From an uncultured Bacilli bacterium (GTDB lineage: Bacteria; Bacillota_I; Bacilli_A; RF39; UBA660): a DNA stretch of 64,000 nt. Within the stretch, counting starts at the first letter, position 1, and the number at the start of each line of letters is the position of its first letter. Positions 11,013 to 34,417 of this stretch are shown piece after piece. The translations under genes were made by a program, and so were the position numbers. The stretch spans positions 86,246-150,245 of the forward strand of contig CANRCR010000001.1 of NCBI GenBank assembly GCA_947629165.1, in the 5' to 3' direction. The notes below the pieces were generated by a model that saw nothing but the letters and a program-made list of their open reading frames with translations, had not been told where the DNA came from and made no database searches.

Positions 11013-11089
<77 letters not shown>

Positions 11090-11152: not shown

Positions 11153-11244
11153 TTTCTTGACGATTATTTGTCAATTCATTTTTACTTTTTTTATTATTTC
11201 GAATATAATAAAATTAAAGTTATAAAAATAGAAAGGAGTATTTA

Positions 11245-11385
11245 TAACTAGCGCTAGGACCAGGATGGTTGACGAGGTTAACAGTGGTCGAAAGATTCAG
11301 CGGATGCTGTTACGGATACTACGTTCGTTAGACTATTCAAAAAAGACAAAATTAAAATTGTAACAAAGGAATAGTTTAGTAGTAG
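11245..11385 (+). ncRNA. glmS ribozyme (GlcN6P-responsive self-cleaving riboswitch) in the glmS leader
   Basis: Leader contains AGCGCUAGGACCAGG...GACGAGG...CGGAUGC, which matches the conserved glmS ribozyme core blocks (AGCGCC.G..., GACGAGG, GGAUGCC). It is positioned directly 5' of glmS, as in Gram-positives. Confidence 0.65.
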
Positions 11386-29424: not shown

Positions 29425-30795
29425 ATGGAAAAATTAACAATGGAAAAGTTAGTCAATTTTTGTAAACAGTACGGTTTTATTTTTCAGGGAAGTGAAATAT
29501 ATGGAGGACTTGCTAATACGTGGGATTACGGTCCTTTAGGAAGCCGTTTAAAAAATAATATTAAAGATACTTGGCGAAAACGTTTTATTCAAGAAAGACC
29601 CAATGCTTACGAAGTGGATGCCGCTATTTTAATGCATCCTCGTGTTTGGGAAGCCAGTGGCCATGTTGCTAGTTTCTCAGACCCTTTAATCGATTGTAAA
29701 AATTGTAAGATGCGGCATCGTGTCGATAACTTAATTGATGATTTTGATAAAAACGCTCATGCGGACGGAATGACGCAAGATGAAATGATGGCCTATGTTA
29801 AAGAACATAAAGTTCCATGCCCTAAGTGCGGAAAGAGTGACTTTACTCCTATTCGACAATTTAATCTTATGTTTGAAACTTATCGTGGGGTAACCGAAGA
29901 TAGTAAGAATAAAATTTACTTGCGTCCTGAAAATGCGCAAGGAGAGTACGTTAACTTTTTAAATGTACAACGTTCGATGCGCGCAAAACTTCCTTTTAGT
30001 ATCGGTCAGGTTGGAAAAGCTTTTCGAAACGAAATTACACCAGGTAATTTTACTTTTCGAACAATCGAATTTGAACAAATGGAATACCAAACTTTCTGTA
30101 AAGAAGGTACGGATAGTGAACTTTATGCCTATTTCAAGGAATATGCTAAAAAATATTTTATGGATTTAGGACTTCCTGAAAATAAACTTCGTTATCACGA
30201 TCATGAAAAACTAGCTCATTATGCGAAAGAAGCTTGTGATATCGAATACGAATTTAATTTTGGTTGGGGTGAGATTAACGGAACCCATAATCGTACAGAT
30301 TACGATTTGAGTCGTCACCAAGAATATTCGACCGAATCGCAAGCATATTTGGATCCGGATACCAACGAAAAATATATTCCATATATTATTGAATCTACGG
30401 TCGGATGTGATCGTTTGGTTTTAGCTATTTTAGATCAATGTTACGAGGAAGAAACATTGAAAGATGGAACGACGCGCGAAGTAATGCATTTTCATCCATT
30501 CCTTGCTCCTTACAAAGTAGCCGTATTACCACTCGTTAAGAAATTCCATAGCGAAAAAGCAAGTGAGATTTATACTATGTTAAGTAAACATTTTATGACG
30601 AGTTACGATGAAGCAGGAAACATCGGAAAACGTTATCGTAGACAAGATGCCGTTGGAACTCCTTTTGTAATCACCGTGGATGATGAAACTTTAAATCATA
30701 ATACCGTAACGCTTCGTTTCCGGGATTCTATGGAACAAATCACTTTACCACTCGATGAAGTAGTCGATTATATTCAAGCGCGAATCACATTTTAA
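29425..30795 (+). CDS. glyQS: Glycine--tRNA ligase (homodimeric alpha2 type)
   Basis: EIYGGLANTWDYGPLG signature. 456 aa. Confidence 0.9.
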   Translation: MEKLTMEKLVNFCKQYGFIFQGSEIYGGLANTWDYGPLGSRLKNNIKDTWRKRFIQERPNAYEVDAAILMHPRVWEASGHVASFSDPLIDCKNCKMRHRVDNLIDDFDKNAHADGMTQDEMMAYVKEHKVPCPKCGKSDFTPIRQFNLMFETYRGVTEDSKNKIYLRPENAQGEYVNFLNVQRSMRAKLPFSIGQVGKAFRNEITPGNFTFRTIEFEQMEYQTFCKEGTDSELYAYFKEYAKKYFMDLGLPENKLRYHDHEKLAHYAKEACDIEYEFNFGWGEINGTHNRTDYDLSRHQEYSTESQAYLDPDTNEKYIPYIIESTVGCDRLVLAILDQCYEEETLKDGTTREVMHFHPFLAPYKVAVLPLVKKFHSEKASEIYTMLSKHFMTSYDEAGNIGKRYRRQDAVGTPFVITVDDETLNHNTVTLRFRDSMEQITLPLDEVVDYIQARITF

Positions 30796-30824
30796 AAGAC
30801 CTATTTATCTATAGGTCTTTTGTT
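30795..30824. terminator. Bidirectional terminator between glyQS and the convergent gene
   Basis: Perfect hairpin aaagacctatttatctataggtcttt. Confidence 0.65.
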
Positions 30825-31826
30825 TGCCGATTTCGAATTACGATAGACGTATTGTAACGCTGGATTTTCTTTTTTAATCTTGGAAATTATTTTTTCATCA
30901 ATTATTTTTTTAGTTTGTACTAGTTGATCGTATAATTGATCCCGTTCGAAAGGAGTCATTGGTCGCGATAGAAATGAGTCCGTGTTTATTCCATTTTTTG
31001 CGATGGTGCCATAAGTAAGATTGTAAGTCCATTCTTCTTGCTTATTATTTTCTTCTCGATAGACGATTACTTTCTCGTGGTTATCAACTACATCGTGCGA
31101 GATTTCTATGATAGAATGATCTTTCTTAGTTGTTGAATAGTGGCTAAAATAACGTAAACTAGAGCGATGAAACCATGTTTTCATACCATTTTCATCATCT
31201 ATACATTCAAAGTATATACTGTCGTCTCCATTTCCACTAAAGTGGACTTTATCATCTATAGTTATATAATTTTTTAAAGTAATACTGGAGTCTAGATAAG
31301 GATTTACCGCTTTATCAAAGTTCGTAAGGGCTTCTCGAAAATATCTTCCTAGTGTCGTACTTTTACTTTTTTGGATACTTTCTTTTACCGCATTCATCGA
31401 CTGCCTAGTTAGCCACTCATCGAGGGTAAGCGAAGGATTCAACTGCTCTAGTAGCCAGGCATTTAGTTTGACTTTGTTTTCTTCTATCTTTTGAACACTC
31501 GTAGCTTCTTTTCCTTTCTCTTCATCATAGGCATCTTTAAGATGAGACAACACGATTAAAATATTTTCCATTGAATCAGTAAAATAGGTATAATGTCCTT
31601 GATCAATTAATTCACTAAAAACGAACTTTTCTTTACCATAGATCCTCAGTTTAGAAATGACTTTGTAAGGAAGCCTTCCACTAATACACATGGTCTTTTT
31701 TTTCTTTCCTGTTGTAATAACAATCGGGGAGTCCTGTCTTAGGATGATTTCTCCTGTTGTTTTCTTTACTTCATAGTCTTTAAAAGATAAAAGATCAAGT
31801 ATTTGTTGGATGATTTCGATTTGCAT
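30801..31826 (-). CDS. Hypothetical protein (341 aa)
   Basis: Intact minus-strand ORF with RBS aggaggt. No family recognised. Confidence 0.5.
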   Translation of the reverse strand: MQIEIIQQILDLLSFKDYEVKKTTGEIILRQDSPIVITTGKKKKTMCISGRLPYKVISKLRIYGKEKFVFSELIDQGHYTYFTDSMENILIVLSHLKDAYDEEKGKEATSVQKIEENKVKLNAWLLEQLNPSLTLDEWLTRQSMNAVKESIQKSKSTTLGRYFREALTNFDKAVNPYLDSSITLKNYITIDDKVHFSGNGDDSIYFECIDDENGMKTWFHRSSLRYFSHYSTTKKDHSIIEISHDVVDNHEKVIVYREENNKQEEWTYNLTYGTIAKNGINTDSFLSRPMTPFERDQLYDQLVQTKKIIDEKIISKIKKENPALQYVYRNSKSANKRPIDK

Positions 31827-31886
31827 AAGAACCTCCTTTTGGAAATGCCTCTATTGTACCATAAACATCGTTAAAGCAAAAGAACC

Positions 31887-32657
31887 TTAAGTTAAAAAGG
31901 TTCTAATGATCTTATATACATAGTAGGGATTTTCTAAATAGGGAAAGTGTCCTGTTCCTTCAATTAAAACAAGTCCTGAATCCGAAATTTCTGCTTTCAT
32001 CTTTTTGCCATCTTCAAAAGGAGTAGTGGCATCTTTTTCACCCCAAATCAGTAATGTTGGAGCATTTATTTCTTTTAAATAGGGAAAGAGATCCTCTTTG
32101 ACAACATTTTGAAAAGTTTTTCGCATATCGATGGGAAGACTTCGATAATCACTCGAACCAAACTTTTGAAGTAACCATTCAAGGTATTTTTTCTGTTGTT
32201 TTTTAGGAAAAATAGTTCCTAGTTTTTTTAAGATTCGATAAATTTTATTTTTTATTTTTTGATAGAAAGTTTGGGTAGGAAGAATACCGGCACTATCTAA
32301 GAGGATGATTTTAGAAATTGGTAAGTGGTAGTATCCTGCTAAAAGGATGGCGATTCTTCCACCAAAGGAGTGTCCTATTAAAATAGGTTCTTTGAGTTCT
32401 TCTTTTTCGACAAAGGCTTTGATTAGTAACGCATAGTCATAAATTGTTAAATCGTGATGGGGAAACTTCGTGTTTCCAAATCCGGGGTAGTCAAAGATAT
32501 AGATGGTGTGTTCTTTTTGTAATTCTTCAAGGAGATAATGAAAAGTTTTTCTAGTGTCTCCCCATCCAGGTAGTAGAAGAATGGCATGCTCTTTTTCTTC
32601 TCCGTATTTTTCATAATAAAGCGAAATATCTTGATTATCAAAATACATTATCTTCAC
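31887..32657 (-). CDS. Alpha/beta-hydrolase fold protein (esterase/lipase-like)
   Basis: Nucleophile elbow GHSFGG. 256 aa. Confidence 0.7.
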   Translation of the reverse strand: MKIMYFDNQDISLYYEKYGEEKEHAILLLPGWGDTRKTFHYLLEELQKEHTIYIFDYPGFGNTKFPHHDLTIYDYALLIKAFVEKEELKEPILIGHSFGGRIAILLAGYYHLPISKIILLDSAGILPTQTFYQKIKNKIYRILKKLGTIFPKKQQKKYLEWLLQKFGSSDYRSLPIDMRKTFQNVVKEDLFPYLKEINAPTLLIWGEKDATTPFEDGKKMKAEISDSGLVLIEGTGHFPYLENPYYVYKIIRTFLT

Positions 32658-32754
32658 CTAGTATAATGTATGTTTGGAGTGGTTTTATTGTTCCAAAGTG
32701 ACAAATGAAGAAAAATTAGTATATTTTTTTACAAATTATGATATAATAGAATTG

Positions 32755-32972
32755 TCTAGAGGGTTTTCGATTGTTATCCAATATAAAACCGACTAAAATA
32801 ACGATACGGGAGTTCGGATCAGTCGTCGGTGTTGAAGACCTTTTCCTTTTCGATTAGGGATCCTAATGGCGGCGTATGGACACCCACCTGTACATGGGTG
32901 CAGGTTTTATCGTTGATAGCGTCGACCCTTTGGACTTATTTGATATGTTACAAGCGCCTGCTTGTTTTTTTC
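32755..32972 (+). ncRNA. Candidate stand-alone structured small RNA (unassigned; 6S-like size)
   Basis: Extended -10 promoter (TGATATAAT at 32739-32747). About 215 nt with several strong local hairpins (attagg/cctaat; cacccA/Tgggtg), visibly GC-richer than the flanks. Ends in a clean intrinsic terminator (acaagcgcctgcttgt plus T7 at 32950-32972). The downstream gene has its own TTGCTT-17-TATAAT promoter. Confidence 0.45.
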
Positions 32973-33030
32973 TTGCTTTTTTTATAATTCATTTATATAA
33001 TGTCTATAGGTAGTAAGGCGGTTAGATAAC

Positions 33031-33723
33031 ATGTATTATTTTCCGGTATTAAATAAAAATCATATGGATTTATACAAATTAGTTTTAAAGGATGCCCGTT
33101 TTGAAAAACAAACGGGGAGTCGGTCGATCGACGACTTGAAACTTTCTTTTGTACCCAAAGATGAAGAAACTGTCTGTGAAGTACCTTTTTATGGAAATGA
33201 TTTGTTACCTTGGGATATCGTATCTACTTTAGCTCAAAGTACTCGTGATACTTACTGTATAAAAGGTCGGGAAGGGGATTATATTATTCCTATTCCTACT
33301 TTATCAACGGCTTATGGATTTCGGGCGATGGCACGAGGAACGCTCTATTATCATTTGCTTTATCAGATGGCGGATGAAACGATGCAGGATGAATTTTTTG
33401 ATCTAGCTCATTTTGTCAATCGAAAGGGCGCTTTTCAAACAGTCATTGATTCTTTCGAACAAACTGGATTTTGTCCTTGGAAACAAAAAGATAAAAATGT
33501 GCTTCCTTCTTTTGTAGAACCTGTTTTAGTGAAAAGTTTACCGGTGGTTCGACTTGCCACTTTTACTAAAAAAGAACGAATGTATACTTGGAACCGGTAT
33601 TGGAATAATTATTTATCTCTTGCCAAGCAAAATGGAGATATTATCTATCCAGAACTAATCGATACTATTCCTCCTGTTGAACAAGAAGTAGATCAAGCCG
33701 TTTTCCAAAAAATATTAAAGTAG
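33031..33723 (+). CDS. Hypothetical protein (230 aa)
   Basis: Intact ORF with its own promoter and RBS ggcgg. Confidence 0.5.
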   Translation: MYYFPVLNKNHMDLYKLVLKDARFEKQTGSRSIDDLKLSFVPKDEETVCEVPFYGNDLLPWDIVSTLAQSTRDTYCIKGREGDYIIPIPTLSTAYGFRAMARGTLYYHLLYQMADETMQDEFFDLAHFVNRKGAFQTVIDSFEQTGFCPWKQKDKNVLPSFVEPVLVKSLPVVRLATFTKKERMYTWNRYWNNYLSLAKQNGDIIYPELIDTIPPVEQEVDQAVFQKILK

Positions 33724-33730
33724 GGATGAT

Positions 33731-34417
33731 ATGCGAAAAGAATTTGAACGATTTGAAAAATTAATAGGAACGGAATCACTTTTAAATCTTTCTCGTAAAA
33801 CCGTTTGTATCGTCGGTTTGGGAGGGGTTGGAGGTTACGTTCTTGAAGCCTTGGCACGAAGTGGTATCACGTCTTTTGTGTTAGTAGATTTTGATGTTGT
33901 CGATAGGACCAATATCAACCGACAAATTATTGCTTTACAGTCGACTATCGGACAAAAGAAAATCGAGGCTTGGAAAAAGCGGTTACTGGATATTAATCCC
34001 GAAATTCGTGTCATTACTTATGACTTTTTCTATCAGGATACTTATGAAGCGACACTTTTTCAAAATAAAATCGACTTTTTAGTCGATGCTTGTGATTCGA
34101 TTCCTGCTAAAGAGAATTTAATACAGGCTTGTCTTACGCGAAAGATTCCTTTTATTTCCAGTATGGGAACCGGGAAGAGGTTAGATCCTAGTAAATTGTA
34201 TATTACCGATTTGACCAAGACTTCTTACGATCCGATTGCACGTATTTTAAGAAAATGGGCAAAAGATCAAGGGATAAAAGCTAAAATACCGGTTTTAACT
34301 TCCACGGAAATTCCTCGTAAAAGTGAAGGGACGACCGTTTCTTCGTGTGCTTTTGTTCCATCGAGTGCCGGGTTACTTATCGCTTCCTATGTCGTATCTC
34401 AACTACAAAAAAAATAG
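33731..34417 (+). CDS. ThiF/MoeB-family E1-like adenylyltransferase (TcdA/CsdL-like tRNA t6A dehydratase candidate)
   Basis: Nucleotide-binding motif VCIVGLGGVGGYVLEALARSGI and DFDVVDRTNINRQ. Confidence 0.7.
   Translation: MRKEFERFEKLIGTESLLNLSRKTVCIVGLGGVGGYVLEALARSGITSFVLVDFDVVDRTNINRQIIALQSTIGQKKIEAWKKRLLDINPEIRVITYDFFYQDTYEATLFQNKIDFLVDACDSIPAKENLIQACLTRKIPFISSMGTGKRLDPSKLYITDLTKTSYDPIARILRKWAKDQGIKAKIPVLTSTEIPRKSEGTTVSSCAFVPSSAGLLIASYVVSQLQKK

Follow-up and report, generated by a model that had tools for sequence, protein, structure and literature searches.

A very probable 6S RNA (SsrS) gene of the Bacillus subtilis 6S-1 type upstream of tcdA in an uncultured Bacilli bacterium

Which kind of RNA, if any, is encoded in the intergenic region between positions 32,700 and 33,000 of the 64-kb stretch of DNA analysed here (hereafter, the window), and why do standard annotation tools pass over it? 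An earlier note, made from the letters of the sequence, had described a stand-alone, structured small RNA in this region, transcribed from a promoter of its own and ending in an intrinsic terminator, and had left the choice between a 6S RNA and a novel sRNA. Of these two options, the first proved to be right, based on the match to Rfam family RF00013, a covariance model built without the window and a set of homologues, while the idea of a novel sRNA had to be rejected. Hence, positions 32750-32940 (+) are assigned with high confidence to a 6S RNA (SsrS) gene of the B. subtilis 6S-1/bsrA type, equipped with its own extended -10 promoter and terminator. 6S RNA is a well-known regulator which occupies the active site of RNA polymerase. 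The present sequence is a further copy from an uncultured Bacilli lineage, whose score falls slightly short of the Rfam threshold.

The default Rfam scan of the whole 64-kb window, run at gathering threshold, gives no match at 32700-33000. Its only matches in the window are a tRNA at 11013-11086 (+; 65.5 bits) and a full-length glmS ribozyme at 11239-11385 (+; 64.7 bits), located about 150 nt after the tRNA. In a permissive scan of 32600-33100 (501 nt), RF00013 (6S/SsrS) matches 32750-32940 (+) with 44.8 bits and an E-value of 7.3e-8, covering model positions 1-187 of 187, and the runner-up family reaches 15.7 bits, with all non-6S matches at or below 16 bits. The curated gathering score of RF00013, which is an operational cut-off rather than a biological property, amounts to 46.4 bits; the window RNA falls short of it by 1.6 bits, and the default scan is silent for this reason. 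The earlier note had proposed cmscan as a test and, taken literally at default thresholds, this test would wrongly have left the RNA without a family. The Rfam 6S consensus blocks bordering the central bubble, GGGAG on the 5' side and CACCCACCUG on the 3' side, are matched exactly by the window RNA, and both are invariant or nearly so across the 22 homologues described in the following.

Homologous regions were collected using the tcdA-family gene at 33731-34417 as bait, resulting in 80 loci from species-representative genomes, of which the best tcdA relatives (52-59% identity) are labelled uncultured Bacilli, Mycoplasmatota or Erysipelotrichaceae and originate from gut and rumen. In six of the first 19 loci (L007, L010, L011, L012, L014 and L019), Rfam 6S is found over its gathering score with 51-62 bits. 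All six copies are on the tcdA strand, and the RNA starts approximately 1.0 kb upstream of tcdA in five of them and approximately 1.9 kb upstream in L012. A covariance model prepared from the window and these six Rfam-passing relatives (model R1, alignment A1) scores the window RNA with 179.5 bits and, when applied across 81 sources, yields 22 full-length copies (the window plus 21 relatives), all of them upstream of tcdA on the same strand. No match with model R1 was obtained in the remaining 58 tcdA loci, mostly from Clostridia. As a leave-one-out control for circularity, model R2 (alignment A3) was derived from the six Rfam-passing relatives alone, with the window left out. This model matches 32750-32940 with 139 bits (E = 8e-33), which is the sole significant match in 64 kb, the next one within the window scoring 13.7 bits. 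Additionally, a 2.1-kb metagenome contig (ENA ERZ27249148, NODE_22673; L081, 1-2090) is 99.9% identical to window positions 31800-33883 and displays zero differences across RNA, promoter and terminator, and is therefore regarded as the same organism sampled independently.

When 15 of the copies were scored with the Rfam 6S model, six passed, the window and seven others gave 34-45 bits (34-44 bits for the sub-threshold relatives L001, L002, L003, L005, L008, L009 and L015), and L006 was not listed at E <= 0.01. The homologue scores form an unbroken range from 34 to 62 bits that spans the cut-off, with most matches extending over the full model length. The clade as a whole thus straddles the Rfam cut-off, and the 1.6-bit shortfall of the window RNA is a matter of model sensitivity and not of a different identity. 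The same scores bear on the reading as a lineage-specific sRNA with a function unrelated to 6S, e.g. a base-pairing sRNA, whose resemblance to 6S RNA would be superficial. Such a reading could draw on the position of the window below the gathering cut-off and on the seven relatives with only 34-44 bits, but it is very improbable given the continuity of scores across the cut-off, the full-model coverage of most matches, the exact GGGAG and CACCCACCUG consensus blocks and a synteny which is that of B. subtilis 6S-1 (see below). With 6S RNA as the preferred identity, the consequences are chiefly those of annotation: threshold-based Rfam annotation omits a housekeeping regulatory RNA of this genome, and the understanding of 6S RNA action itself is unchanged by the window RNA. 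As the Rfam 6S model is borderline in this uncultured Bacilli clade, additions to the seed or the use of tcdA synteny as a guide would recover such copies. In lactic acid bacteria, many 6S copies were likewise recovered only with a lowered covariance-model threshold in combination with required synteny (PMC8414754).

The transcription unit to which the 6S match belongs comprises the following elements:

32739-32747 (+): extended -10 promoter TGATATAAT (TG at 32739-40, TATAAT at 32742-47), with no good -35 element
32750-32940 (+): 6S RNA (SsrS) body of about 187-191 nt, as matched by RF00013, R1 and R2
32950-32971 (+): separate intrinsic terminator ACAAGCGCCTGCTTGT (ACAAGC-GCCT-GCTTGT, stem-loop 32950-32965) followed by T6 (32966-32971)
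32973-33001 (+): promoter-like site of the next gene, outside the RNA, with TTGCTT (32973-32978), a 17-nt spacer and TATAAT (32996-33001)

Both ends of the unit agree with what had been proposed for them. The extended -10 promoter TGATATAAT is present at 32739-32747 and keeps its position in nearly all 22 homologues, in which a TGnTAnAAT motif ends 2-3 nt ahead of the model start. From this spacing, transcription is predicted to start approximately at the first pair of the closing stem, corresponding to G32754 in the window. The promoter is absent from the list of a two-hexamer promoter scan because it offers no usable -35 element. The clean terminator (ACAAGCGCCTGCTTGT plus T6) was likewise recovered, and terminator-like sites are enriched in the region (3 versus 0.5 +/- 0.6 in shuffles). 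In most relatives, the closing stem runs straight into U5-6, whereas the window, L006 and L020 have a distinct terminator hairpin, set some tens of nucleotides further downstream. The predicted primary transcript of the window RNA thus begins near G32754, stops at the last T of the T-run and measures about 218 nt, of which about 30 nt extend past the 6S body at the 3' end; this length agrees well with the earlier estimate of about 215 nt. Its higher GC content compared to the surroundings was correctly noticed as well, since G+C amounts to 0.42-0.44 over the RNA versus 0.255 just upstream and 0.31 just downstream.

The promoter-like site at 32973-33001, which had been assigned to the downstream coding sequence, is also present. 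Its -35 hexamer fits the consensus at only three of six positions, which explains why the promoter scan did not list it. In most relatives, the ORF that follows the RNA is preceded by an additional extended -10 promoter, which supports the RNA as a stand-alone gene.

The genomic context of the RNA corresponds to that of B. subtilis 6S-1. Gene 33731-34417 encodes a ThiF family protein with TcdA as best NCBIfam match, and the window RNA starts 981 nt upstream of it. In all 22 genomes, the RNA is found 10-1714 nt upstream of tcdA on the same strand. According to its title, the study of Suzuma et al. 2002 (cited in PMC10578484 and PMC3299989) places B. subtilis 6S-1 in the aspS-yrvM spacer, and yrvM is the orthologue of tcdA (PMC5389704). 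Hence, the window RNA is the positional orthologue of 6S-1. The link between 6S and tcdA has been kept from Bacillus to these distant Bacilli and represents a useful anchor for finding 6S-1 orthologues. The 6S RNAs of lactic acid bacteria share the Bacilli-type, 6S-1-like canonical form with the window RNA; in contrast, they are flanked by rarA and uspA (PMC8414754), while an alpha/beta hydrolase gene and tcdA flank the region in the window. Further upstream, a 341-aa ORF on the opposite strand (30801-31826, -) displays no Pfam or NCBIfam match and is located between a glycyl-tRNA synthetase-like ORF (29425-30795) and the alpha/beta hydrolase gene (31887-32657).

What lies between the RNA and tcdA is less constant. 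In the window, this slot is occupied by a single 230-aa ORF (33031-33723, +), and 16 relatives carry a conserved ORF of about 270 aa (MLVLPIVN...) in the same place, e.g. L007:3196-4005 and L010:3202-4008. Neither the 230-aa ORF nor the slot ORFs of about 270 aa gave a Pfam or NCBIfam match. A comparison by hhalign, yielding a probability of 3.7% and an E-value of 0.012 over only the N-terminal 39 residues, did not substantiate homology between them. The 230-aa ORF is thus the positional equivalent of the ORFs of about 270 aa without being demonstrably homologous to them; either this gene evolves very rapidly, or it has taken the place of another one. In L042 (3808-3991), L045 (3796-3973) and L047 (2346-2530), three relatives at a greater distance, the ORF is missing altogether and 6S ends only 10-32 nt before the tcdA match; in L042, the space left between 6S and tcdA is too short for a promoter. 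From these short distances, read-through is likely in at least some of the three, and their tcdA may be transcribed from the 6S promoter. This arrangement would resemble ssrS-ygfA of E. coli, where 6S RNA is co-transcribed with the downstream ygfA and yet does not act as a leader.

The constant position upstream of tcdA on the same strand, together with the probable read-through in some of these three relatives, is what one would also expect if the RNA were a cis-regulatory leader, i.e. a riboswitch or attenuator controlling ORF 33031 and tcdA with the terminator as its expression platform. Several observations render this explanation extremely improbable. In the permissive scan of 32600-33100 (E <= 10), riboswitch and leader families (glmS, T-box, SAM, TPP, FMN, purine and others) gave only noise at or below 16 bits, the top non-6S match being the one with 15.7 bits. 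The fold is a 6S rod and not an aptamer with a competing anti-terminator, and the terminator hairpin of the window is situated outside the conserved RNA, with which it has no sequence in common. Furthermore, the ORF in the window is preceded by its own promoter-like site, and most relatives have the extended -10 promoter there. As the E. coli 6S-ygfA case illustrates, co-transcription does not by itself imply a leader role. The description of the region as a stand-alone RNA rather than a 5' leader, with its own conserved promoter, separate downstream promoters and no riboswitch match above noise, is therefore upheld.

As a 6S RNA, the transcript should adopt a characteristic secondary structure, and the window RNA indeed folds as a long interrupted rod, with a central bubble of 17/17 nt between the closing stem and the apical stem. 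The elements of this fold are as follows:

32754-32763 (+): closing (terminal) stem, 5' strand, pairing with 32926-32935
32783-32790 (+): helix P2 (downstream duplex), 5' strand AUAAAACC, pairing with GGUUUUAU at 32903-32910
32791-32807 (+): central bubble, 5' strand of 17 nt, GACUAAAAUAACGAUAC, unpaired in the Rfam alignment and in models R1/A2
32808-32885 (+): internal and apical stem (helices 6-9), from GGG (32808-32810) to CCC (32883-32885)
32886-32902 (+): central bubble, 3' strand of 17 nt, inside the conserved CACCCACCUG motif, with the hairpin ACCUG (32886-32890)/CAGGU (32901-32905)
32903-32914 (+): P2 3' strand GGUUUUAU continuing into UAUCGUU, which is able to pair with ACGAUA (32801-32806) instead
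32926-32935 (+): closing stem, 3' strand CCCTTTGGAC, pairing with 32754-32763

With 191 nt, the 6S match displays the size and rod architecture of the 6S type of about 180-200 nt. The closing stem (helices 1-2) is followed in the window by two short variable helices and by P2 (helix 5), which is drawn as <<<<<< / >>>>>> in the Rfam consensus. The 5' bubble strand GACUAAAAUAACGAUAC, which includes ACGAUA at 32801-32806, is almost invariant in the 22 homologues, and the 3' bubble strand is an exact match to the Rfam consensus CCCACCUG. The internal and apical stem additionally holds two conserved internal loops, GGUGUUGAA and GGAUCCUAA.

Covariation analysis on homologous regions, which had been suggested as a further check, strongly supports the rod. 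On an alignment of 22 sequences, whose fitting to the model structure raises the pairing values to some extent, the rod comprises 44 pairs in nine helices, with 93.5% of cells paired (77.6% in shuffles), compensatory changes on both sides in 32 of the 44 pairs (19.8 in shuffles) and a covariation score of 0.50 compared to 0.19 in shuffles, the observed value being reached by none of 500 shuffles. As a control, the 3' partners were slid by 1-3 columns, upon which pairing drops to 33-49% of cells and the number of covarying pairs to 11-16. Independently, RNAalifold, applied to a plain MAFFT alignment of seven sequences, yields compensatory change in 17 of 35 pairs. Among the individual elements, compensatory changes occur in nine of ten pairs of the closing stem (89-97% of cells paired) and in 16 of 20 pairs of the internal and apical stem (helices 6-9; 93-100% paired), while P2 is 94% paired with a nearly invariant sequence. 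Such conservation in 21 other genomes, accompanied by covariation, greatly exceeds what chance would produce.

Strand assignment follows from the same alignment, in which 70 G-U cells face 9 A-C cells, identifying the plus strand as the RNA strand. An antisense transcript was considered as well and is excluded by this 70:9 ratio; the minus strand also folds less well (z = -2.55). Folded as a single sequence, the plus strand reaches -69.8 kcal/mol (z = -3.1), and none of 200 shuffles was as good. The corresponding minimum free energy structure is, however, non-canonical, as it pairs bubble residues and makes use of the window-specific CACCCA/TGGGTG region, and was not adopted as the structure.

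The perfect local hairpins described in the earlier note are present in the window, namely ATTAGG-GAT-CCTAAT at 32865-32879 and CACCCAcctgtacaTGGGTG at 32881-32900, but both fall outside the conserved fold. In the latter, the AGG of ATTAGG contributes to the apical stem, its partner being a CCU located upstream, and one pair of this AGG/CCU pairing is U-A in 12 of the homologous sequences and C-G in 10. A conserved ATTAGG-GAT-CCTAAT hairpin was rejected, as its equivalent in the relatives would have a 2-nt loop, and so was CACCCA...TGGGTG, since TGGGTG is absent from the relatives. The conserved hairpin of the 3' bubble strand is ACCUG...CAGGU. The GTCGAC palindrome exists at 32921-32926, where it supplies only one strand, the 3' one, of a segment of the closing stem.

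The pattern of substitutions also bears on a possible coding function of the region. The program-made ORF list includes two short ORFs, 32829-32987 (52 aa) and 32876-33013 (45 aa), that could in principle represent a small protein-coding gene. Among the 22 homologues, however, the longest open stretch shifts frame and strand so that no ORF is conserved, substitutions track base-pairing instead of codon position, and indels are not multiples of three, which reduces the probability of this explanation to a nearly negligible level.

6S RNAs are bound in the active site of the housekeeping holoenzyme and leave it upon serving as template for short product RNAs (pRNAs). In case of the window RNA, a mechanism can be outlined by analogy with E. 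coli 6S and B. subtilis 6S-1. The rod shape would mimic an open promoter, and the RNA would occupy the active site of the sigma-A holoenzyme, thereby holding the polymerase back when nutrients are scarce. Upon return of NTPs, the polymerase would copy the 5' bubble strand, starting from U32794 (or C32793) and continuing into AUAAAACC, giving a short pRNA of about 5'-AGUCGGUUUUAUAU-3'. The hybrid of this pRNA with its template would unwind helix P2, and the freed 3' strand would refold, giving the ACCUG/CAGGU hairpin as well as the ACGAUA/UAUCGU helix. This refolding would collapse the bubble and, finally, release the polymerase.

Individual steps of this scheme can be compared to B. subtilis 6S-1, where the polymerase initiates the pRNA at C40 of the 5' bubble strand and P2 is opened by pRNA synthesis. 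The 3' bubble strand of this RNA contains a small hairpin, and a 'central bubble collapse helix' is then formed between the distal 5' bubble strand and the P2 3' strand (PMC8876501). The predicted pRNA AGUCGGUUUUAUAU, obtained as the reverse complement of 32781-32794, was aligned with the B. subtilis pRNA GUUCGGUCAAAACU, and UCGGU at positions 3-7 is common to both. GG at positions 5/6 and an A adjoining the start site in the 6S RNA, both of which are listed as pRNA hallmarks (PMC8414754), are present, while AA at positions 9/10 is absent. Taken together, UCGGU, the GG at 5/6 and the adjacent A lead to the predicted start at U32794, or at C32793 if a start with G is preferred. The predicted 5' ends of the pRNA are AGUCGGUUUU opposite 32794 or GUCGGUUUU opposite 32793, and most of the pRNA would be templated by the P2 5' strand (32783-32790).

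The released conformer was evaluated on the alignment and by partition function. The ACCUG (32886-32890)/CAGGU (32901-32905) hairpin can pair in 99% of cells with two compensatory events, and the collapse helix ACGAUA (32801-32806)/UAUCGU (32908-32913) in 93% of cells. For the released conformer as a whole, pairing potential amounts to 95-99% with 2-3 compensatory events in almost invariant sequences; since P2, bubble hairpin and collapse helix are all near-invariant, covariation cannot separate pairing from sequence-specific protein contacts here. When the 14-nt template is blocked in silico, the hairpin probability in the window RNA rises to 0.97 and that of the collapse helix to 0.96, with medians over the 22 sequences of 0.97 and 0.92, respectively. 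In the free RNA of many relatives, P2 itself is predicted to be weak (median probability 0.14, ViennaRNA), and the collapsed form already competes with it. Based on this predicted weakness of P2, the open bubble may depend on the polymerase.

Overall, the window RNA resembles B. subtilis 6S-1 (bsrA, BS190) in its length of about 190 nt, in the rod with central bubble, in the location of the gene upstream of tcdA/yrvM, in a predicted pRNA with UCGGU and GG at positions 5/6, and in the small 3'-bubble hairpin and the potential for a collapse helix between distal 5' bubble strand and P2 3' strand. At the same time, several differences are apparent. While the B. subtilis pRNA starts with G, the predicted pRNA of the window RNA starts with A at U32794 unless C32793 is used. 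P2 consists of AUAAAACC/GGUUUUAU, and the predicted pRNA contains UUUU in place of the AAAA of the 6S-1 pRNA. The bubble hairpin borrows GGU from the P2 3' strand, which brings it closer to the release hairpin of E. coli. Moreover, the transcription start, unlike in B. subtilis 6S-1, appears to coincide with the first closing-stem pair, so that 5' processing may not be needed, and an unrelated 230-aa ORF separates the RNA from tcdA. With 6S RNA of E. coli (SsrS), the founding member of RF00013, the window RNA shares the overall fold, with an open-promoter-mimicking central bubble and flanking helices of the GGG/CCC type, as well as a hairpin that can arise, once the downstream duplex is unwound, from its 3' strand together with the 3' bubble strand (PMC8876501). 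Sequence similarity to the E. coli RNA is low, however, as the borderline 44.8 bits show, the genomic context differs (ssrS-ygfA in E. coli, tcdA in the window), and the release hairpin comprises 5-8 bp in the window RNA compared to 9 bp in E. coli.

In view of this combination of features, it is conceivable, albeit rather unlikely, that this clade of uncultured Bacilli from gut and rumen carries a distinct 6S subtype, characterized by two release devices in invariant sequence and an A-starting, U-rich pRNA, in which the 6S of L042, L045 and L047 would possibly form the 5' part of the tcdA transcript. The two devices may be an E. coli-like hairpin taking over the P2 3' strand (ACCUG/CAGGU) and a B. 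subtilis-like collapse helix (ACGAUA/UAUCGU). If this tentative reading were true, the free RNA would be near the collapsed form, and polymerase binding rather than RNA folding would keep the bubble open.

A further observation concerns the hairpin CACCCA...TGGGTG (CACCCAcctgtacaTGGGTG, 32881-32900), which is private to the window, overlaps the conserved ACCUG/CAGGU hairpin of the 3' bubble strand and is in competition with it. In B. subtilis 6S-1, an extra hairpin in the 3' bubble strand impairs release (PMC8876501).
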